Shown here in pieces: positions 3,428-13,826 of a stretch of DNA of 32,677 nt. The notes beneath the pieces were generated by a model. The model saw nothing but the letters and a program-made list of their open reading frames with translations, had not been told where the DNA came from and searched no databases. This DNA comes from an uncultured Candidatus Saccharibacteria bacterium (GTDB taxonomy: Bacteria; Patescibacteriota; Minisyncoccia; UBA6257; JACOXY01), in contig CAYHMC010000003.1 of assembly GCA_964357615.1 (NCBI GenBank), positions 1 to 32,677 of the forward strand, given 5' to 3'. Position 1 is the stretch's first letter, and each line of letters begins with the position of its first letter. Both the position numbers and the translations under genes were made by a program.

Positions 3428-4693
3428 TTAATTTGTACTAAGTAACGCAATCGCCTTTTTTAATTGTTCGTCATTTTTTACATCCAACTTACTAGATGTC
3501 AGTAATAAAATATCAGATAATGATTTGCGAGAATCAGTAACGGCATAGTCCGGCTTAAGGCCAGTTTCGTTTATTTTAACTTTACTATTTCCAACAAAAT
3601 ATTCATCGGTCGTGAGAATAATCGCACCTCCCGAGGGCAAACGATGAACAGTTTGAACCAATCCTTTACCATAAGTTTTTTCACCAACAAGTAGTGCTCC
3701 GAACCAATCTCTTAGTAAACCAGCTAATATTTCAGCGGATGAAGCAGATTCGGCATTAACCAAAACTACAACTTGTGATTCATTTAGAACGCCAGTAAAT
3801 GCTAATGAGGGATATAATCCTTCGTTAAGCATATCGCCTACGGTAATTACCTTTAATTTTTCCGCTCTGCCTATTAGAGAAACTATAAAATCATCATTAC
3901 TATTAGCAAAGAACATAGAAATCCCTAAAACCGAATTAAGTGTCCCCCCAGGATTATCCCTCAAATCTAATATAAGTTTATTAATAGTATTTCGGCGAGA
4001 AATTTCCCTGTAAAGCCTAAGTGCATCTTCAAGAAATTCATCGGTGGTTTCTTCATTAAATTTTAAAATTTTTACATAACCAATGTCACCCCCTAACATT
4101 TCTGATTCAACAGAACGATTAACAATTGGTTTGCGGATAAGTGTAACTACATCTTGAATGACACCATCCCTCCGGACTTGAATTGAAACATTAGTACTCT
4201 CGGCACCCCTTAATTTTGAAACAATAAAATCTAAAGGCTTCTTTTCAACGTCTTCGCCATCAACACGAGCTATTATATCTCCTCGCTCTAACTTACCACT
4301 TTCTATTGCAGAAGAATTGGTCAAAAGAGAAATAACAACATTATTATTTTTTATAGTTGCAACCTCAATGCCAATTCCAATATATTTTTCATCTCTAGCA
4401 AAAGTTTTCTCGTCGTAAGACGACGGAGACAAGTAACCTGCATACTTATCATTAAGACATAGTGGCAATCCACCCTGAAGAGTTTTCAAAAAACAATCTT
4501 TCTTATTTTCTGGAGTATCAGATATTTCTTTGATAAAATTATTGACTACCAAACCCCAAATTGCATCGAAGTCCTCAAACTCACTTGGTGCTCTCGAAAA
4601 AGTCACAAGCTCCGGCTTTATAAATAAATATGCCACGAGAAACCCAGTCGCAAACATTAAAAAGACCTTAGATACTCTCCGTAGTCTAAGCAT
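3428..4693 (-). CDS. S41 carboxyl-terminal protease (CtpA-like), N-terminal membrane anchor
   Basis: PDZ loop YIGIGI, LILDLRDNPGG, catalytic SASSAE and KTYGKG. Confidence 0.92.
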   Translation of the reverse strand: MLRLRRVSKVFLMFATGFLVAYLFIKPELVTFSRAPSEFEDFDAIWGLVVNNFIKEISDTPENKKDCFLKTLQGGLPLCLNDKYAGYLSPSSYDEKTFARDEKYIGIGIEVATIKNNNVVISLLTNSSAIESGKLERGDIIARVDGEDVEKKPLDFIVSKLRGAESTNVSIQVRRDGVIQDVVTLIRKPIVNRSVESEMLGGDIGYVKILKFNEETTDEFLEDALRLYREISRRNTINKLILDLRDNPGGTLNSVLGISMFFANSNDDFIVSLIGRAEKLKVITVGDMLNEGLYPSLAFTGVLNESQVVVLVNAESASSAEILAGLLRDWFGALLVGEKTYGKGLVQTVHRLPSGGAIILTTDEYFVGNSKVKINETGLKPDYAVTDSRKSLSDILLLTSSKLDVKNDEQLKKAIALLSTN

Positions 4694-4758
4694 TTTTACC
4701 TTTTTTACTTTTTAAAACGCCTATTCGCATTCTACCTATATTTTTAATTATTTAGCAA

Positions 4759-4905
4759 ATGAATCCCGTCAGAAGCGATAAAATAAAAGTCGTTAATATA
4801 ACAGAATTTACATTTATAATGTGTTTTAATTACTAGATCAAATTTGCACGGATATGCCAGCATATCCTGCTTCTAACGGGATGAATCCGACTAGAAGCGA
4901 TAAAA
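4759..4905. repeat. Short element with TIR ATCCCGT(C/T)AGAAGC followed by a degenerate second left end
   Basis: ATCCCGTCAGAAGC (4763-4776) is inverted with GCTTCTAACGGGAT (4869-4882). 4759-4783 is repeated directly at 4881-4905 (21/25 identical). Confidence 0.75.
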
Positions 4906-6178: not shown

Positions 6179-7402
6179 CTAAAATTCGCCACGCAACTTA
6201 TCAATTTTATCGAGATCTTCAACGCGAGAGCGCAATCCATTAGTTTCTGGAACATCCTCTATCACTAAAGTTCCGGTACGATATTGCTCAATCATAGATG
6301 TCATTTCATCGGCGCTTATCGAACCTTCCGCGCCAGTAATTTCACCAATTGAATAAATAGCTCTATATAATTCTTCAAAATTCTTAGCTGATTGTATTGA
6401 TTCTCTGTTTCTTGCATCCCCACTTTCTACTTGGATTTCAGCAACCTGCTCCTGATCTTCAACTTTAGTTTCAATATTTTGATTATCAGCACCAGCTTCT
6501 GTTTTTTTACCTTCAATAGAAATTACAACTGAAGTAATATCGTCTTTTTTAGAACGATCAACACCTTCGCGAGACCTAGCTTGTGCAGCTTCCGCAAGTT
6601 TTTTTGAAATTTCTTCCGGAGGAGTATTTAACGCAATTTCTTGTATTTCTGAATCTGTAAGATTGTCGTGCACGCCATCAGATGTAATTATAATTTTATC
6701 TCCGTTATTTAGTTTAACGGTATAAATATGTGGCTCAAAAGCCGTATCGGGCGTTGCGCCACCAATTGCTCCAGTAATAACATTTCTATTTTTATAGTTT
6801 TTCAGTTCTGCTTCTGTAAGTGATGATATATCAGTTAGCTCAGCAAATTTTTTCTGTTCTTTCCTTGCTGCTTCTTCGCCTTCGTCTCTTAATACGGTAC
6901 TAAAATAAATATTATCGTCTAGAGTAATTTGCCTAAGCTCGCCAGACGCACTTTGAACATACACTCTACTATCTCCAACATTACCAATAACTGCATTTAG
7001 TCCATCTTCTTGTGTTTCAAGCAATTTAACTAAAGATGCAGTGGAAGCCATTCCATGAAGTGTTGGATTTTCTGCTACGAGCTTGTACGAATTTTGATTT
7101 GCTTCGGCTAATATTTTTGCCATTTCTTCCTTGACTTGATCTAGCGTTAAGTCTGGAGCCAAAGCTTCAATTTTCTGTAAAATAAAATTTCGATTTTCTC
7201 TCGAAGCAACTTCACCGGCAGTATGCCCTCCTACTCCATCTAATACAGCAAATATCTTTTTTTCTGCATCATTAATAAAAGCATCTTCGTTTCTTTCTGG
7301 ATGCTTATCACTAGCTAAACTTTCTGAAGTTGCAAATAATCTTGCCTCTTGATCCTCTTTATCTTCAAAAGCGTTTCTTATTTCTTGTAGTTTTTCAGAC
7401 AT
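6179..7402 (-). CDS. PP2C/PPM Ser/Thr phosphatase with C-terminal extra domain
   Basis: RNEDA, FAVLDGVGG, NVGDSRVY, TSDGVHD and DDIT metal-binding motifs. Confidence 0.9.
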   Translation of the reverse strand: MSEKLQEIRNAFEDKEDQEARLFATSESLASDKHPERNEDAFINDAEKKIFAVLDGVGGHTAGEVASRENRNFILQKIEALAPDLTLDQVKEEMAKILAEANQNSYKLVAENPTLHGMASTASLVKLLETQEDGLNAVIGNVGDSRVYVQSASGELRQITLDDNIYFSTVLRDEGEEAARKEQKKFAELTDISSLTEAELKNYKNRNVITGAIGGATPDTAFEPHIYTVKLNNGDKIIITSDGVHDNLTDSEIQEIALNTPPEEISKKLAEAAQARSREGVDRSKKDDITSVVISIEGKKTEAGADNQNIETKVEDQEQVAEIQVESGDARNRESIQSAKNFEELYRAIYSIGEITGAEGSISADEMTSMIEQYRTGTLVIEDVPETNGLRSRVEDLDKIDKLRGEF

Positions 7403-7556: not shown

Positions 7557-7629
7557 TGGTGCGCTCGTAGGGATTCGAACAAAATTTTGTAAGACGAAAT
7601 TTTTTGAAACCCATCGACTTCAATACTTC
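7557..7629 (-). repeat. tRNA 3'-end fragment (T-loop to CCA) fused to conserved core
   Basis: Minus strand reads GTTCGAATCCCTACGAGCGCACCA (7580-7557). Core 7579-7629 matches 13586-13649. Confidence 0.85.
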
Positions 7630-7635
7630 TGTACA

Positions 7636-8025
7636 TTATTTAAAGCTATGACCAAAGCGATATGTAGGACCAGCACAACGCTCTAAATCTAAATTGGTTC
7701 GATAGTCAGGAGTGAAGTATATGAAAGATGCAATCATCAAACCAAGAACAATTATCCAAAACCCACTAAAGCGAAACTTTTGATTAAAGTAGGGGGATGT
7801 GGGAATATTTCGGTTTTTATGCCAAAGATAAAGCATGCGCATTCCCCACGCCATAATTAAAATACCAAATAGAAAACCAGAAATACCAAGAAAGTCGTGG
7901 TAATCACAACCATAAAGTCCGGCCGATCCATATGTAATATTTGGACTAATAATTAAAGCTATCAATCCCAGAAGAATAATCCAATTAAACATGGAGCTAC
8001 GATAAGATAAGAATAAATGCCACAT
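7636..8025 (-). CDS. Hypothetical membrane protein (about 3 TM helices)
   Basis: 129 aa ORF with three hydrophobic segments, located between tRNA-Arg and the tRNA fragment. Confidence 0.65.
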   Translation of the reverse strand: MWHLFLSYRSSMFNWIILLGLIALIISPNITYGSAGLYGCDYHDFLGISGFLFGILIMAWGMRMLYLWHKNRNIPTSPYFNQKFRFSGFWIIVLGLMIASFIYFTPDYRTNLDLERCAGPTYRFGHSFK

Positions 8026-8091
8026 ATATTATTATAAACTTTCTCCGCCCCGCTTGCCATTTCAGGCAACTATTCGCGCCTTGACATACGG

Positions 8092-8163
8092 TGCGCTCGA
8101 GAGGAATCGAACCTCTATCGCAAGATCCGCAATCTCGCATCCTATCCGTTGAACGACGAGCGC
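8092..8163 (-). tRNA. tRNA-Arg (GCG), CCA not fully encoded (CCG follows)
   Basis: Acceptor GCGCTCG/CGAGCGC, anticodon arm CGAGA-TTGCGGA-TCTTG and T arm AGAGG-TTCGATT-CCTCT. Confidence 0.93.
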
Positions 8164-8260
8164 ATATTAATTACTTTTATACTACCCCAAAAATACCATC
8201 TTACGCAAGAAAACATGACTTTGATTTCTATAGTCATCACAAAACACAATTTCGGTGTGT

Positions 8261-8289
8261 TTGCCTTAGTGCCAAATTTAGGATATTAT
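8261..8289 (+). promoter_or_regulatory. Putative sigma70 promoter for rny
   Basis: TTGCCT-N17-TATTAT. Confidence 0.5.
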
Positions 8290-8424
8290 ACAATCATAAA
8301 ATAGAAATTATTAATCGTGTTCCTAGCCAAAATGACTACAAGTTACCTATCAATATGCACATCTCGGATATAAATTCGTAATTGGTAGCCAATTATAATA
8401 TGAAGTTAGTGAACAATTTAACAT

Positions 8425-9951
8425 ATGAATACTACAACCCTAATCGTGGGTGTGATTTCAGTTCTTGTGGGTATAGGAGTGGGATACTTTATTCGTCAAT
8501 CTCTCGCTTCGCGAACCCTAAACTCAGTAGAGGGCAAAATTAAATCTAAGCTTAAAGAAGCAGAAGAAAAATCTCATTCTGTGGTTCTAGAAGCAGAAAA
8601 GAAAGCTGCTGATATTTTGGCGCAAACAAAACTTGACGAAAGAGAACTTAGAACTAAGTTAGAAAAACTTGAAGAGAGAATTTTAAACAAGGAGGAGGAT
8701 TTGGATAAGAGAATGACGGGGCTTGGAGAAGAACGCAAAAAACTTGATGCGGAGCTCGCCAAAATTAAAACCGTAGAGCAAGAAGCAATTGAACTAAAAA
8801 ACCGTGCGGTTACAGAACTTGCGCAAGTTGCAAAACTTTCCGAATCAGAGGCTAGAGATAGAATGATGGCAGAGATAAAAGAAAAATACAGAATTGACCT
8901 TGCCGAACTAATGGCCAAACTAGAAAAAGAAAAAACAGAAACACTTGAAAAGCGTGGACTTGAACTTATTACAACCGCAATTCAACGCTATGCTAGGAGT
9001 CATATCTCAGAACTAACAACTAGCGTATTTAATATTCCAAACGAAGAATTTAAAGGGAAAATTATAGGACGAGAAGGAAGAAACATAAGAACTCTCGAAA
9101 GAGAAACTGGAGTTGAATTTATAGTTGATGAGTCACCCGATGCCATTATAATATCTTCATTCGATCCAATGCGGAGAGAAATAGCAAGATTAGCGCTAGA
9201 AAAACTAGTAACTGACGGACGAATTCAGCCAGCTAAAATTGAAGAGAAGGTCGAAGAAGCAAGACAAGAAATTATGAAACGAATGCATGAAATTGGTGAG
9301 GCTGCTTCATTTGAATTAGGTATCTATGACCTGCCAAAAGAAATTATTCAATTATTGGGAAGACTACATTTCCGCACGAGCTTTGGACAAAATGTTTTAA
9401 ATCACTCAATTGAAATGGCATATATTTCTGGAATGCTTGCCGCAGAGCTCGGCGCAAACCCCGAAATAGCAAAAAGGGGCGCATTAGTTCACGATATCGG
9501 AAAAGCTATTGATCAAGATGTTGAAGGAACTCATGTTGAGCTTGGCAGAAAAATACTTAAGAAATATGGTGTTGATACTCGCATTATTCAAGCAATGGAA
9601 TCTCATCACGAGGAATATCCATTTTCAACTCCAGAATCTTTTATAGTTACTGCGGCTGATGTGCTCTCTGCCGCAAGACCAGGAGCAAGACGAGGTACTG
9701 TTGAAAACTACTTTAAGCGCATAGAAGATTTAGAAAAAATTGCTATGAGTTTTGCTGGTGTTAAAACCGCGTATGCAATAGCGGCTGGACGCGAACTTCG
9801 TATATTTGTTATACCTGAAAAGATTGATGATTTTGGCATGCTTCAACTTGCAAGAGATGTTGCATTTAAAGTTCAGTCTGAACTAAAATACCCTGGTGAA
9901 ATTAAAGTTAATGTATTGCGTGAAAGTCGAGCAGTAGAATACGCTAAGTAA
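8425..9951 (+). CDS. rny: Ribonuclease Y
   Basis: N-terminal TM, coiled coil, KH domain (KGKIIGREGRNIR) and HD domain (VHDIGKA). Confidence 0.97.
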   Translation: MNTTTLIVGVISVLVGIGVGYFIRQSLASRTLNSVEGKIKSKLKEAEEKSHSVVLEAEKKAADILAQTKLDERELRTKLEKLEERILNKEEDLDKRMTGLGEERKKLDAELAKIKTVEQEAIELKNRAVTELAQVAKLSESEARDRMMAEIKEKYRIDLAELMAKLEKEKTETLEKRGLELITTAIQRYARSHISELTTSVFNIPNEEFKGKIIGREGRNIRTLERETGVEFIVDESPDAIIISSFDPMRREIARLALEKLVTDGRIQPAKIEEKVEEARQEIMKRMHEIGEAASFELGIYDLPKEIIQLLGRLHFRTSFGQNVLNHSIEMAYISGMLAAELGANPEIAKRGALVHDIGKAIDQDVEGTHVELGRKILKKYGVDTRIIQAMESHHEEYPFSTPESFIVTAADVLSAARPGARRGTVENYFKRIEDLEKIAMSFAGVKTAYAIAAGRELRIFVIPEKIDDFGMLQLARDVAFKVQSELKYPGEIKVNVLRESRAVEYAK

Positions 9952-10126
9952 ATTCAATTCTAATAACATTTGACTCCTCTATTGGTATGATATAATAAAA
10001 ATATGATAGAGGGTATTGATAAATAATTAAAAGGTCGGTAATAAGCCTTGGAATTGCGAAGTTATTATTAAATTGTGAATAATTTATTTACTAATTAATA
10101 CATTTCACGCATTTCACAAGAATATT

Positions 10127-10402
10127 ATGAAAAAAATAGGATTAATTGAAGCAATAATGAAGGCTTGTGAAATAGAAAAAAAGACACAAGCAACTGCGAT
10201 TGTAGATACTATATTTGATACAATCACAAAAACTATGAGTCGAGGTGAAGAGGTTGCCATTCCTGGATTCGGTGTTTTTCGCGTGGCAAAACGCGCTGCA
10301 AGAGAAGGCAGAAACCCAATGACAGGAGAAAAGATTCAGATTAAAGCCTCTGTAAAGCCAAAATTCCGAGCTGCTAAAGCACTAAAAGAAGCAGTCTTAT
10401 AA
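10127..10402 (+). CDS. hup: HU family DNA-binding protein
   Basis: GFGVFRV and AAREGRNPMTGEKIQIKA signature. Confidence 0.95.
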   Translation: MKKIGLIEAIMKACEIEKKTQATAIVDTIFDTITKTMSRGEEVAIPGFGVFRVAKRAAREGRNPMTGEKIQIKASVKPKFRAAKALKEAVL

Positions 10403-10470
10403 AATAACAAGGCGCCTTGTTATTGTAAAAAAATCCCCCGCCGCTAAATAAGGGTGGGGGATTTTTATTT
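10403..10470. terminator. Double hairpin / bidirectional terminator
   Basis: Perfect palindrome AATAACAAGGCGCCTTGTTATT (10403-10424), then AAAAATCCCCC...GGGGGATTTTT. Confidence 0.75.
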
Positions 10471-10515
10471 GGGAGAGCGCTAACACTTTTTACATGTGCT
10501 CTCAATTAAAAAATA

Positions 10516-11484
10516 TTAAAGTCCTAATATATTTCTTACAGTTACACTAATTTTTAGATAATTATTATATGCACTCTTAAGTGATCCGATAGATGACTTT
10601 ACGAGGCTAACTACTGTCGATGTTGAAGTTGGCATTGGTGTGGATTCGATTATTCCAGATTCAATTCCCTTTTTAATTTCTTTTACGGTACCAGAACTAT
10701 TTGCGGTTGTACTTGCTAGAGATTGAGTGCCAGTTGCCACAAGCATCACTGAACTAGTTGACTCTGTGCTTAGTATTTCAGTTGGCACATAAAATTTAAG
10801 CACCAATTTATGAGCATCGCTACTTAGCTTATCAGCCTTTTCAGTAAGCTTCGATGATTCAACAAGCAAGCTCTTTATTGATGGAACGCTTGAAAGACGC
10901 AAAATCGTAATAGTTGATTTGATTTTATCAAAGCGAGCTCGTGCTATTTTAATTGACTGCTCGTTATTTATTACGAGTATAAAATCGTTTATTTTACTAA
11001 GTAGTGGCACATAATCATTTTTTCTCCATTCCAATATGTCCTCTGCCAATTTTTTAATATCTGTAAGTCCAATGCTTGTAGAGACTGCCTCACTAAATTT
11101 AGCGTAACTTTCTTCACTTGTTACTAATGAAGCCAAAAATTGTGTTCGCATACCTTCGTCTTCTGGTGTTTCCAATACAAGACCTTCTAATTTTTCTTTT
11201 ATTTGATTAATTTCTTCGTGTGCACAAATTATAGTTTGCTCAATAACAGCTTTTCTAGCTTTAAATTCAGCTCTGTCACGAGCAAGCCCTGTTAGTGCAC
11301 CATCTTTAATAGACAAGAGTTCGTCTACTGCTTTGTTCAGCTCACAAGCAGGCGCCACTTCAGGAATAGTAGAAGTTGCGGTTTCTGCTTTTGCTAAACT
11401 TAATCCAATTAAGCAAAAAGAATAAGCAAACGCTAATGCAAAAAATATTATTCTGTGTCTTATTTTAATTTTATTTATAATCAT
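10516..11484 (-). CDS. Hypothetical secreted helical protein in ECF sigma operon
   Basis: Signal peptide ending AKA-E, helical body and Ser/Thr-rich linker. Starts 2 nt after the preceding stop. Confidence 0.75.
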   Translation of the reverse strand: MIINKIKIRHRIIFFALAFAYSFCLIGLSLAKAETATSTIPEVAPACELNKAVDELLSIKDGALTGLARDRAEFKARKAVIEQTIICAHEEINQIKEKLEGLVLETPEDEGMRTQFLASLVTSEESYAKFSEAVSTSIGLTDIKKLAEDILEWRKNDYVPLLSKINDFILVINNEQSIKIARARFDKIKSTITILRLSSVPSIKSLLVESSKLTEKADKLSSDAHKLVLKFYVPTEILSTESTSSVMLVATGTQSLASTTANSSGTVKEIKKGIESGIIESTPMPTSTSTVVSLVKSSIGSLKSAYNNYLKISVTVRNILGL

Positions 11485-11486
11485 AT

Positions 11487-11945
11487 TTAATTTGCACTTG
11501 CTTCTAGTGCGCTATCAATGTCTTTGTCATAAAATTGTTCCGTATTCAAATCTTCTACTTCTCTTTTTAAAATAGTTGTATTCAAGTGCCCAGGCCCGCT
11601 TTTTGCCGACTCTTCTAGAGCTGCGTCAGTTTCGTTGCTCGCAAGTGAAATTTCTTTAATTTCAGCGAGATTTAAGTTTATATCAAGTTCCTCTGCTTCT
11701 GCTTTTAAGTCACGAACATCGAGTCCTGCAACCTTCATTGGAATCGAGCTTTTTGAAACAGCAAACAAAGCAAGTACCAACATAACTCCTACGGTACTAA
11801 TTCTAACCAAAAGAGTTCGCCAGCCGTTTAGCTCTAAGTCTTCTTGCCTTCCAGCCATAATAAGCCTAAACGATTTTTGGCTATATTCTTTATCTGGTTC
11901 TATTCCTTTAAATTTTTTAAGTTGTTGTAAAAAATCTTCAGTCAT
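11487..11945 (-). CDS. Putative anti-sigma factor (single TM)
   Basis: Directly follows the ECF sigma; short cytoplasmic N-terminus, one TM and an acidic exterior tail. Confidence 0.6.
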   Translation of the reverse strand: MTEDFLQQLKKFKGIEPDKEYSQKSFRLIMAGRQEDLELNGWRTLLVRISTVGVMLVLALFAVSKSSIPMKVAGLDVRDLKAEAEELDINLNLAEIKEISLASNETDAALEESAKSGPGHLNTTILKREVEDLNTEQFYDKDIDSALEASAN

Positions 11946-11958
11946 TGTTTCTAGTTAT

Positions 11959-12489
11959 CTATAAAATTAGTTTTAATGCTTTTAATGCTCTATTGTGCAT
12001 CAATTTTACTGCACCTTCAGACTTTTGAAGAATTGAGGCAATTTCATTATTAGTCATATCTTCCACATATTTCATAACAATAATTTCCTGATATTCTGGT
12101 TTTAACTGCGAAAGAACTAATTTCACTTTTTTAAGTGCCATTTTTGTTTCAAGCGCACTAATAGCTGTACTTGAAGCAAACACGACATCTTCAGAAATTA
12201 ATTCTAGTGATTGAGTTTCTTTTCTGGTGCGATAATAATCGATGGTCAAATTTCTAGCTATACGATAAAGATAACTTCCAAAAGGATACCCCCTATCTGT
12301 ATATGCTTTTAAATTAACCCATGCTTTTAGAAAAACTTGATGGGTAAGGTCCTCGGCTTCCTCACGATTGCTCACTTTAAGATATATAAACCGATAAATT
12401 TTCGGTTGATAGTAATCATAAAGTAAGCCAAAAGCCGAGGCCTCTCCCTTAATGGCATTCCTTATTATGTTGTTCTCGCCATCTAACAT
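11959..12489 (-). CDS. ECF RNA polymerase sigma factor
   Basis: AFGLLYDYY, AEDLTHQVFLKAW, YLYRIARN and region 4 EIASILQKSEGAVK. Confidence 0.95.
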   Translation of the reverse strand: MLDGENNIIRNAIKGEASAFGLLYDYYQPKIYRFIYLKVSNREEAEDLTHQVFLKAWVNLKAYTDRGYPFGSYLYRIARNLTIDYYRTRKETQSLELISEDVVFASSTAISALETKMALKKVKLVLSQLKPEYQEIIVMKYVEDMTNNEIASILQKSEGAVKLMHNRALKALKLIL

Positions 12490-12524
12490 ATAAAACGATA
12501 ATAGCTAATATAAGTTACGCGTGG

Positions 12525-12797
12525 GAACCCATCTCAATACTATCTTCAGCCGCGATACTGGTCAATTTCGTTTGGCACAAGGAGCTAGGGCGAGGTGTAC
12601 TCAGAGAGTACATTAAGTCCGAAGCGACACCGTGATCAAATGAAATTGACTGTATCCCGAAGGGTTTTCGCTATTTTCCTGATTCACTTCGTCACTCCTC
12701 GTCGAAGTAGCCAGAGGCTACACCTTTCTCGTCCTTCCTTGTGAAATCAGGAAAATATCTGAAAACGCGACTTGAAGCATAGTTTTGAGATGGGTTC
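12525..12797. mobile_element. MITE-like palindromic element with ~30-bp TIR and two internal long hairpins
   Basis: GAACCCATCTCAATACTATCTTCAGCCGCG is inverted with CGCGACTTGAAGCATAGTTTTGAGATGGGTTC. Confidence 0.85.
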
Positions 12798-12913
12798 TAG
12801 ATATACCTTATATTATACAATTTAAAGTAGGTAGATTATAGCAAAATTATTGACAAAACACAAGTAAATATGTATTTTAAGTGACTACTGTGACCTTATA
12901 TATCAGTAAAATA

Positions 12914-12936
12914 ATAAGTCACCCTAGGTGACTTAT
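12914..12936. terminator. Hairpin terminator after dCMP deaminase
   Basis: ATAAGTCACC-CTA-GGTGACTTAT. Confidence 0.7.
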
Positions 12937-12941
12937 GCTTC

Positions 12942-13382
12942 TTACTTAATTATTATAAGCCCAACTCCGGCTTCACTAAACATTTCTTCAGCCAACTTAA
13001 AATCTTCAACCCAGCGCGGATTATCTGAAAATGGTGCAATTACTTCTGAAATCCCCTTTTGGATAATCATGGCCGCGCAAGGCGCACACGGCAACATTGA
13101 AGTATAAAGGCGACAACCCTTCAAGTCACGATTTGCAAAAAGTATTGCATTTCTTTCACCATGGATAATTAACTTGTATTTGATTTCTCTATTTTCTAAT
13201 CGCTCAGGTGTGTCTTCTACTCCCCTTGGAAAACCATTATATCCAATTGATACAATTCTATTTTCTGGGTCAGCAATTACTGCACCAACTTTTGTCGATG
13301 GATCTTTGCTCCAGCCCGAAATAAATCCAGCAAGTTCCAAAAATCGCTTATCCCATTTTTCTGACATTTTAATTTTCTCCAT
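12942..13382 (-). CDS. dCMP deaminase (ComEB-like)
   Basis: SKDPSTKVGAVI, GYNGFPRG, HGERNA and PCAPCA zinc motifs. Confidence 0.92.
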   Translation of the reverse strand: MEKIKMSEKWDKRFLELAGFISGWSKDPSTKVGAVIADPENRIVSIGYNGFPRGVEDTPERLENREIKYKLIIHGERNAILFANRDLKGCRLYTSMLPCAPCAAMIIQKGISEVIAPFSDNPRWVEDFKLAEEMFSEAGVGLIIIK

Positions 13383-13562
13383 AATTCAATATCTATAAAA
13401 AGATTAGTTTGTTTAGCAACTAGCGTCAAATTATTTAAATGGTGAAGTTATCATAAATTGTATTCCCTCGTCGCCCTTCGGGCAAGGCTCCTCATTTCAA
13501 TCGTCGCTCCTCGGGACTCCTCTAAATGCTATCCGTCTTAGTGGCGGATGACATTTTCTAGT

Positions 13563-13752
13563 CGGAGCGGGTAAGGGGAAATCTCACAAAATTTTGTCCG
13601 CCAGTTGGCGGATACAAAATTTTTTGAAACCCCTCGGTTTCAATACTTCCGCCACGGGGAAACAAACGTTTCCCCGACCCCCTTCTTGTTCGACTCCCCT
13701 ACCACTTCTAGAAATAAATTCACTCAACCAAATTGGCTGAGTGAATTTATTT
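13563..13752 (-). repeat. tRNA-linked element: fold-back arm, conserved core and direct copy of tRNA-Gly 3' end
   Basis: GGAGCGGGTAAGGGGAA at 13564-13580 equals 13754-13770. Inverted copy GTTCGACTCCCCTACC at 13688-13703. Three internal hairpins. Confidence 0.85.
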
Positions 13753-13826
13753 TGGAGCGGGTAAGGGGAATCGAACCCCTGTCAACAGGTTGGAAACCTG
13801 TGATAATGCCATTATACGATACCCGC
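13753..13826 (-). tRNA. tRNA-Gly (TCC)
   Basis: Acceptor GCGGGTA/TACCCGC, anticodon arm ACAGG-TTTCCAA-CCTGT, T arm AGGGG-TTCGATT-CCCCT and encoded CCA. Confidence 0.96.

Follow-up and report, generated by a model that had tools for sequence, protein, structure and literature searches.

The stretch of DNA analyzed here (the window, 32,677 nt) is contig CAYHMC010000003.1 of assembly GCA_964357615.1, positions 1 to 32,677 of the forward strand, from an uncultured Candidatus Saccharibacteria bacterium. In it, the genes for tRNA-Gly(tcc) and tRNA-Arg(gcg) are each followed by a short hairpin-containing unit that closes with a second copy of a tRNA 3′ end (Table 1). These two units belong to a family of repeated elements, and we describe here its anatomy, its distribution and how it might insert.

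A preliminary description of the same DNA had recorded a palindromic 12-mer at 7579-7590 and 13586-13597, a neighboring stretch shared at 32 of 36 positions (7594-7629 versus 13614-13649), and the location of this core 3′ of the two tRNA genes in the same orientation. All of this held. The alignment gave the same identity, both tRNA genes lie upstream on the same strand, and the 12-mer was found at only one further site in the 1.285 Mb genome (contig C23), again within a copy of the element. A second T-loop, T-stem and acceptor end had also been placed at both loci and matched to the neighboring tRNA; the ends are there (7557-7580 and 13563-13587), and the match to the local tRNA was borne out for Gly but not for Arg, where the end is nearer to tRNA-Arg(tcg). 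The shared core is real but had been drawn too short: the Gly unit spans 13563-13705 and includes a 5′ antisense arm and an extra hairpin that had been missed.

In the Gly copy, the antisense arm (A′) differs at one of positions 53-65 from the repeated part of the intact gene (repeat 1) and at seven from the second, downstream copy of that part (repeat 2), while repeat 2 matches the gene without mismatch over positions 61-73. The DNA beyond repeat 2 aligned from its first base with the region downstream of tRNA-Gly(gcc) in the relative G003 (score 33; shuffles 18.6 ± 2.8, maximum 30; 0 of 500 reached 33). In a second relative, G002, tRNA-Gly(tcc) is bare, but no boundary can be read from it because synteny further downstream has been lost. 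The G003 DNA 3′ of tRNA-Gly(gcc) (L160:2228-2480) itself closes with another duplicated tRNA-Gly 3′ end. The corresponding window stretch perhaps represents another element family, distinct from the first and lying behind it; its own genome gave no additional blastn match to this stretch. A six-base repeat around the Gly unit is absent at other copies and was taken as chance.

The Arg copy keeps only the 3′ half of the core and repeat 2. This repeat has one mismatch to the 3′ part of tRNA-Arg(tcg) of its own genome and four to the neighboring tRNA-Arg(gcg), from which both its T-loop and its T-stem differ. The open reading frame (ORF) that stands in for the rest of the unit encodes a hydrophobic protein and may be cargo or a later insertion. 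Even so reduced, the likeness of the two window copies is far beyond chance (E values in Table 1).

Table 1. Features of the two window loci, and element targets other than tRNA and tmRNA 3′ ends
Locus or group	Feature	Position or locus	Strand	Remarks
Gly copy	Intact tRNA-Gly(tcc)	13753..13826	(-)	ARAGORN; Rfam tRNA 60.4 bits; part from position 53 is repeat 1
Gly copy	Locus-specific spacer, 47 nt, terminator-like hairpin and T run	13706..13752	(-)	Unlike spacers of other copies
Gly copy	Antisense arm A′, 18 nt, decayed reverse complement of tRNA-Gly positions 53 to ~70	13688..13705	(-)	
Gly copy	Conserved core, 98 nt, three hairpins with conserved joining strands	13588..13685	(-)	Model R1, E 4.6e-36; compensatory changes
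Gly copy	Repeat 2: altered T-loop, T-stem 3′ strand, acceptor 3′ strand, discriminator, CC of tRNA-Gly	13563..13587	(-)	
Gly copy	Flank beyond repeat 2, homologous to and in register with DNA directly 3′ of intact tRNA-Gly(gcc) of relative G003	13400..13562	(-)	
Arg copy	Intact tRNA-Arg(gcg)	8090..8163	(-)	ARAGORN/Rfam; T-stem same as in relatives G001 and G003
Arg copy	129-aa ORF in place of antisense arm and 5′ half of core	7636..8025	(-)	No Pfam family
Arg copy	3′ half of core, two hairpins	7581..7629	(-)	Covariance model E 5.1e-17
Arg copy	Repeat 2: T-loop, T-stem 3′ strand, acceptor 3′ strand, CCA of an Arg tRNA	7557..7580	(-)	
Other targets	uS9 3′ end	L071, L081, L058, L115		4 genomes
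Other targets	EF-G 3′ end	L063		
Other targets	bL33-like 3′ end	L118		
Other targets	TypA 5′ end	L072, L080, L056	opposite strand	3 genomes
Other targets	GT4 glycosyltransferase 5′ end	L073, L116	opposite strand	2 genomes
Other targets	tRNA-Leu 5′ end, first 26 nt mirrored	L018	opposite strand	

A hairpin core shared across Patescibacteria

We built a covariance model (R1) from six copies of the own genome (G000) and recovered 15 copies there (E ≤ 7.7e-10), supporting the earlier proposal of a gene-less element family that is presumably mobilized in trans. Twelve of the 15 lie behind an intact tRNA or transfer-messenger RNA (tmRNA) gene, two at contig ends, and one, on contig C22, elsewhere. 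The arms of the C22 copy are of Ser type, yet no tRNA lies closer than 900 nt; upstream there are lipid-synthesis genes and no integrase. One ORF of that contig (L035, G000:C22, 982-2145(+), 387 aa) combines CarS-like (CDP-archaeol synthase family) and acyltransferase domains and clusters with genes for UbiA, a CDP-alcohol phosphatidyltransferase and a PEP-utilising enzyme. Contigs of G000 break at or beside copies or their partner tRNAs (C6:71294-71413, C23:11612-11784, C29:44-133 and 6577-6661, C39:5106-5194), so these repeats fragment the assembly; the copies at the C6 and C23 ends have arms whose matching tRNAs, tRNA-Ser(tga) and tRNA-Leu(taa), are located on other contigs.

The family was also recovered beyond G000 when the same kind of scan, proposed in the preliminary description, was run on other Patescibacteria. 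Within the order, 19 of 41 genomes had matches (E ≤ 0.001, own genome included), up to 13 per genome; elsewhere in the phylum, matches were found in 9 of 150 sampled genomes (E ≤ 1e-6). The exact pattern of one core hairpin occurred in at least 114 stretches of contigs from a one-genome-per-species collection, and among the matches listed nearly all were labeled Parcubacteria, Paceibacteria, Saccharibacteria or other Patescibacteria. The element is widespread in the ultra-small Patescibacteria and its core is conserved across classes, with a patchy presence of 1-15 copies per genome.

The preliminary description knew no name for the family, and our searches agree. In Rfam only the tRNAs reached the gathering threshold, the best other match being the hairpin ribozyme at 19.9 bits against a threshold of 65. 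IMG/VR had no matches to two core patterns, blastn against phage and plasmid records found none, and a literature search, which did not extend to supplements and subscription journals, found no published description. No recombinase gene lies in the window, as had been noted, nor in or beside any copy, and none of the copies encloses an enzyme, an arrangement that the preliminary description had envisaged.

The core hairpins are maintained by compensatory change. At one core pair, 82 sequences gave 40 AT, 40 GC, 2 GT and 0 AC, and the outer pairs of the next hairpin covary, alternating between TA, CG, GC and AT. Stem mismatches (G:T versus A:C, 28 versus 17, with a doubtful helix left out) showed no clear strand bias, and decay in the outer part of A′ was alike for C>T (56) and G>A (44). 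Because neither strand test is clearly biased, they do not tell RNA from DNA.

Arms that mirror the ends of conserved genes

To describe the anatomy, we assembled 121 copies: 15 from G000, 29 from relatives and 77 from the species collection. The unit, ~120-170 nt long, sits just outside a functional gene and consists of A′ (12-21 nt, the reverse complement of the gene end), the hairpin core of ~100 nt, and repeat 2, a sense copy of the last 20-80 nt (sometimes more than 80 nt) of a conserved gene. The concern that copies might mostly be unlinked to tRNAs did not materialize, since 76 of the 121 have a tRNA or tmRNA gene upstream on the same strand, 67 of these within 100 nt. A recognizable repeat 2 behind an intact gene was present in 64 of the 76, which together cover 19 isotypes and tmRNA. 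One tRNA-Ala is followed by two units in tandem, so that its end and terminator occur three times there (L014:1501-1807(-)).

The junction at the T-loop, as first described, is indeed fixed in the tRNA-linked copies: in nearly all 76, A′ ends on its inner side with the complement of tRNA position 53, and repeat 2 begins at positions 53-60. In the 12 best-preserved arms A′ corresponds to positions 53-73, without a complement of CCA. Many repeat 2 copies have TC changed to GA at positions 55-56, with the local bases 57-60 retained. As a rule for targeting, however, recognition of a universal T-loop failed. The remaining 45 copies have no called upstream tRNA; some are next to a partial tRNA or at the edge of a contig, at least 11 are at protein-gene ends, and ~20 have no assignment. 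The same core and architecture are found at the ends of genes for uS9, EF-G, a bL33-like protein, TypA and a GT4 glycosyltransferase, and at the 5′ end of a tRNA-Leu (Table 1). At these targets the functional gene always lies to the left in the orientation of the element, the opening 11-19 nt of the repeat have their antisense in A′, and repeat 2 extends to the gene terminus. In every copy, sense and antisense versions of that copy's target are present, so the common feature is the end of a conserved gene and not the T-loop.

The two repeats and the flank can be compared with one another. For the EF-G, TypA and bL33 targets, repeats 1 and 2 differ mainly at synonymous positions, and the reading frame and the stop or start codon are kept in both. 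Among 64 tRNA-linked copies, CCA is present in repeat 2 only in 13, in the gene only in 6, in both in 6 and in neither in 39; put differently, repeat 2 has CCA in 13 of 52 copies whose gene has none and lacks it in 6 of 12 whose gene has it. (CCA is encoded in only ~1/3 of the G000 tRNA genes, and most others still have a C after the discriminator.) These synonymous differences and the discordant CCA in 19 of 64 point to separate histories, suggesting that repeats 1 and 2 can stem from different lineages, as xenologous copies. Judging from alignment to relatives, two loci of G000 have beyond repeat 2 what seems to be the gene's original flank. One is the Gly locus; at the other, the tmRNA copy, the flank is collinear with the region downstream of the G001 tmRNA (score 50; best of the shuffles 36), and the next promoter follows at ~40 nt in both. 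Of 48 testable copies, 11 have a repeat that extends across the trailing spacer at p ≤ 0.01 and 17 at p ≤ 0.05; in the other 31 it ends with the tRNA. A′ was nearer to the intact gene than to repeat 2 in 53 of 55 informative copies, unusual local T-loops included, although indels inflate some of the repeat 2 mismatch counts.

A single-crossover reading weighed against its rivals

An intact gene, an insert, a truncated terminal copy and the old flank, in this order, are the product of a single crossover, and on this ground we read the unit as a miniature integrative element. With moderate confidence, evenly poised between acceptance and doubt, we take it to be non-autonomous and gene-less, with a crossover that would fall inside a conserved gene end, keep the gene intact and displace the old end. 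The gene-end copy borne by the element would cross over with the chromosomal gene, much as in Campbell-type insertion-duplication or in attP × attB recombination within a tRNA, leaving one intact gene at the left and the displaced old end (repeat 2) with native downstream DNA at the right; the element would thereby bring a replacement gene end. A′ could pair with the gene end across the core to form a hairpin whose stem mimics the target, and this folded hairpin would be the cis-acting part. The machinery would act in trans. Candidates for it are the host's own homologous recombination, acting on DNA that was acquired from relatives by uptake, and the genome's only Xer-like recombinase.

The targets, termini of conserved genes on either strand, fit a recombination that needs sequence conservation together with a selection that needs an intact gene: a single crossover is viable only at gene termini and, between diverged genomes, only in highly conserved genes. 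Repeats that include the trailing spacer, and tandem arrays, are likewise expected from recombination between repeats, which for the L014 pair would be unequal.

Several observations weigh against a crossover of this kind. It leaves the origin of new arms unexplained and requires frequent retargeting or gene conversion, and a plain element-borne hairpin does not predict that A′ matches repeat 1 rather than repeat 2, an outcome that would take either selection or a template switch within the inverted repeat. Cores cluster by genome (the nearest neighbor is from the same genome in 17 of 70; permutation mean 2%, maximum 10%) and not by target (nearest neighbor at the same target in 4 of 70), and within G000 core similarity is unrelated to target similarity (14 copies; Mantel r 0.10, p 0.18). 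Spacers beside related cores are themselves unrelated, which is odd if spacers travel with the element. Clustering by genome and locus-specific spacers together imply either retargeting with both arms renewed or gene conversion of the core.

Nor was an empty site or an excised form seen that would prove a boundary; the empty-site pattern had 0 matches in metagenome contigs. Eight sequencing runs from two studies are listed, with no RNA set among them, and in the contigs of the four DNA runs that we compared, both window loci were covered unchanged, with no element-skipping joint and no circle joint. One joint, which links 13685 with 13763, is of low depth (3.3; side 20) and has the look of a repeat artifact.

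Finally, no candidate enzyme tracks the element among the 41 genomes. The one tyrosine recombinase of G000 (a Phage_integrase match, Xer-like) lies beside no copy, and because such a gene is present in 41 of 41 genomes it is uninformative for association. A reverse transcriptase is found in 9 of 19 genomes with the element versus 3 of 22 without, and a Y1 transposase in 10 of 19 versus 6 of 22; both associations are loose, and related genomes are not independent. G000 has one RAYT-like Y1 gene, which at 66.9 bits falls below the curated cut-off of 80 and has no element copy nearby. Its IS200-like product has 223 aa and a C-terminal extension (L166, G000:C41, 3923-4594(-)), and similar genes of 230-260 aa occur in 16 of 41 relatives. 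As movers in G000, IS110 (transposase in 1 of 41 genomes and 0 of 19 with the element), TnpB (0 of 41) and a resolvase (none found there) were rejected.

Because cores cluster by genome and not by target, a target-templated mechanism stays a serious rival, which we consider possible if rather less than probable. Here only the core would be mobile. Its insertion would duplicate the stretch between junction and insertion point and copy the first 12-21 nt of that stretch in inverted form, either because replication switches templates at the hairpin or through staggered breaks with fold-back synthesis. Locus-specific spacers, the copies whose repeat passes through the local spacer or terminator, and an A′ that follows the local T-loop variants of the intact gene all favor it. 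Conversely, the 31 copies without similarity beyond the tRNA end, and the separate histories to which the synonymous and CCA differences point, argue against it, and we know of no enzyme that yields variable target duplications of 20-80 nt plus an inverted copy.

A further possibility, which we regard as unlikely, is a programmable homology-guided insertion module, in which the core would be a scaffold (folded single-stranded DNA or RNA) and the ~20-nt antisense arm and the sense arm would set the target by base pairing. If so, the element would hop between unrelated gene ends in a genome, with both arms renewed, through a recombination activity outside the families searched.

Conserved hairpins with compensatory changes, strong conservation of the core sequence across classes, and the location of tRNA-linked copies on the tRNA strand could instead reflect a structured non-coding RNA with a cellular function and with arms that co-evolve with the gene. 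It might be a tRNA-like minihelix of acceptor and T-stem that carries a large insert, or act in cis as a 3′ element of tRNA transcripts. We find this improbable: the unit starts 0-50 nt past a terminator and so has no room for a promoter, the TypA and GT4 5′-end copies are antisense to the gene, the substitution counts carry no RNA strand signal, and the presence is patchy, without an Rfam match.

A retro-element, in which repeat 2 would be a complementary DNA, made from the 3′ part of a tRNA (mature or precursor) and linked to the core RNA by reverse transcriptase, would account for the 13 repeats with CCA where the gene encodes none and for the greater frequency of reverse transcriptase in genomes with the element. 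It is very improbable, as only 19 of 64 repeats have CCA and the 12 arms spanning positions 53-73 lack its complement, counts on which we rejected a mature-tRNA origin of repeat 2. Moreover, some targets lie on the opposite strand, at 5′ ends of protein genes and at that of a tRNA, and a reverse transcriptase is missing from 10 of the 19 genomes with the element. That of G000, its only one, adjoins a gene for bAvd, a hallmark of diversity-generating retroelements, and is of that type; the two ORFs, 3534-4478(-) and 4575-4895(+) of L165 (G000:C6:13500-21500), form such a retroelement. Decayed attachment scars of ordinary tRNA-integrating prophages or islands are hardly credible. Duplicated tRNA and tmRNA 3′ ends, the classic attachment signature, speak for them, but one ~100-nt core occurs at 19 isotypes and at protein genes, in cargo-free units of 120-170 nt without IMG/VR, phage or plasmid matches, in a genome with a single tyrosine recombinase.

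Relation to known systems and significance

Some genomic islands and prophages sit in tRNA and tmRNA genes, integrated at the T-loop sublocation; derivatives of them that lack an integrase are cis-mobilizable elements (CIMEs). The units share with them the direct repeat of the gene 3′ part, the restored gene, the displaced end on the far side and tandem accumulation. They differ in being gene-less and only 120-170 nt long, and in carrying an antisense copy of the target. Furthermore, each family of islands normally uses one attachment gene, whereas the present family uses 19 isotypes, tmRNA, uS9, EF-G, bL33-like, TypA and GT4 genes, and no cognate integrase was found, G000 having one Xer-like gene and none beside the copies. 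Papers in this field include PMC5704250 and PMC3146451.

Another comparison is with Campbell-type insertion-duplication by a circle with a terminal gene fragment, or with homology-facilitated recombination after DNA uptake. The product has exactly the order of intact gene, insert and truncated terminal copy, and accounts for targets confined to conserved-gene termini. This is, however, a laboratory or general recombination outcome with no named element, and leaves the conserved core and the antisense arm unexplained.

The CTX phage attP(+) and integron attC are attachment sites made of a folded single-strand hairpin. Like them, the element could form a hairpin of ~100-150 nt whose stem resembles the double-stranded target and often has a small mismatch at its center, for which the TC to GA change at T-loop positions 55-56 would be the counterpart. 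For attP(+) and attC the site used is fixed and recognized by protein (dif or attI), and the recombinase is Xer or a dedicated one, whereas the stem of the element differs at every target; neither fixed core sites with IntI nor a dif-like target was found, given the target-specific stem and the one tyrosine recombinase, dif itself lying outside this comparison.

MITEs (miniature inverted-repeat transposable elements) and REPIN/RAYT systems are hairpin repeats mobilized in trans. The resemblance lies in small size, lack of genes, many hairpins, multiple copies and the presumed mobilization in trans, and G000 does have the weak RAYT-like ORF described above, remote from any copy. Unlike MITEs, the units have target-derived arms instead of constant terminal inverted repeats, a target repeat that varies from 20 to over 80 nt, and no parent insertion sequence, and no copy encloses a transposase (IS110, TnpB and resolvase number 0 in G000). 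A paper in this field is PMC11602168.

An internal stretch complementary to the insertion site, beside a structured scaffold, is also a feature of group II introns (exon- and intron-binding sites, EBS/IBS) and of the IS110 bridge RNA, both of which carry antisense to their target. The element differs in having no intron domains, and its 19 host genomes have no IS110 transposase, with TnpB absent from all 41.

Patescibacteria have tiny genomes with few recognizable mobile elements. The family described here indicates that gene-less DNA can colonize essential genes without harm, reaching 15 copies per genome, and that the ends of tRNA, tmRNA and translation-factor genes are recombination hot spots at which assemblies break. 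For annotation, the spare tRNA ends should not be read as pseudogenes of duplicated tRNAs. If the arms truly direct insertion, the element would be a minimal sequence-specified targeting system.

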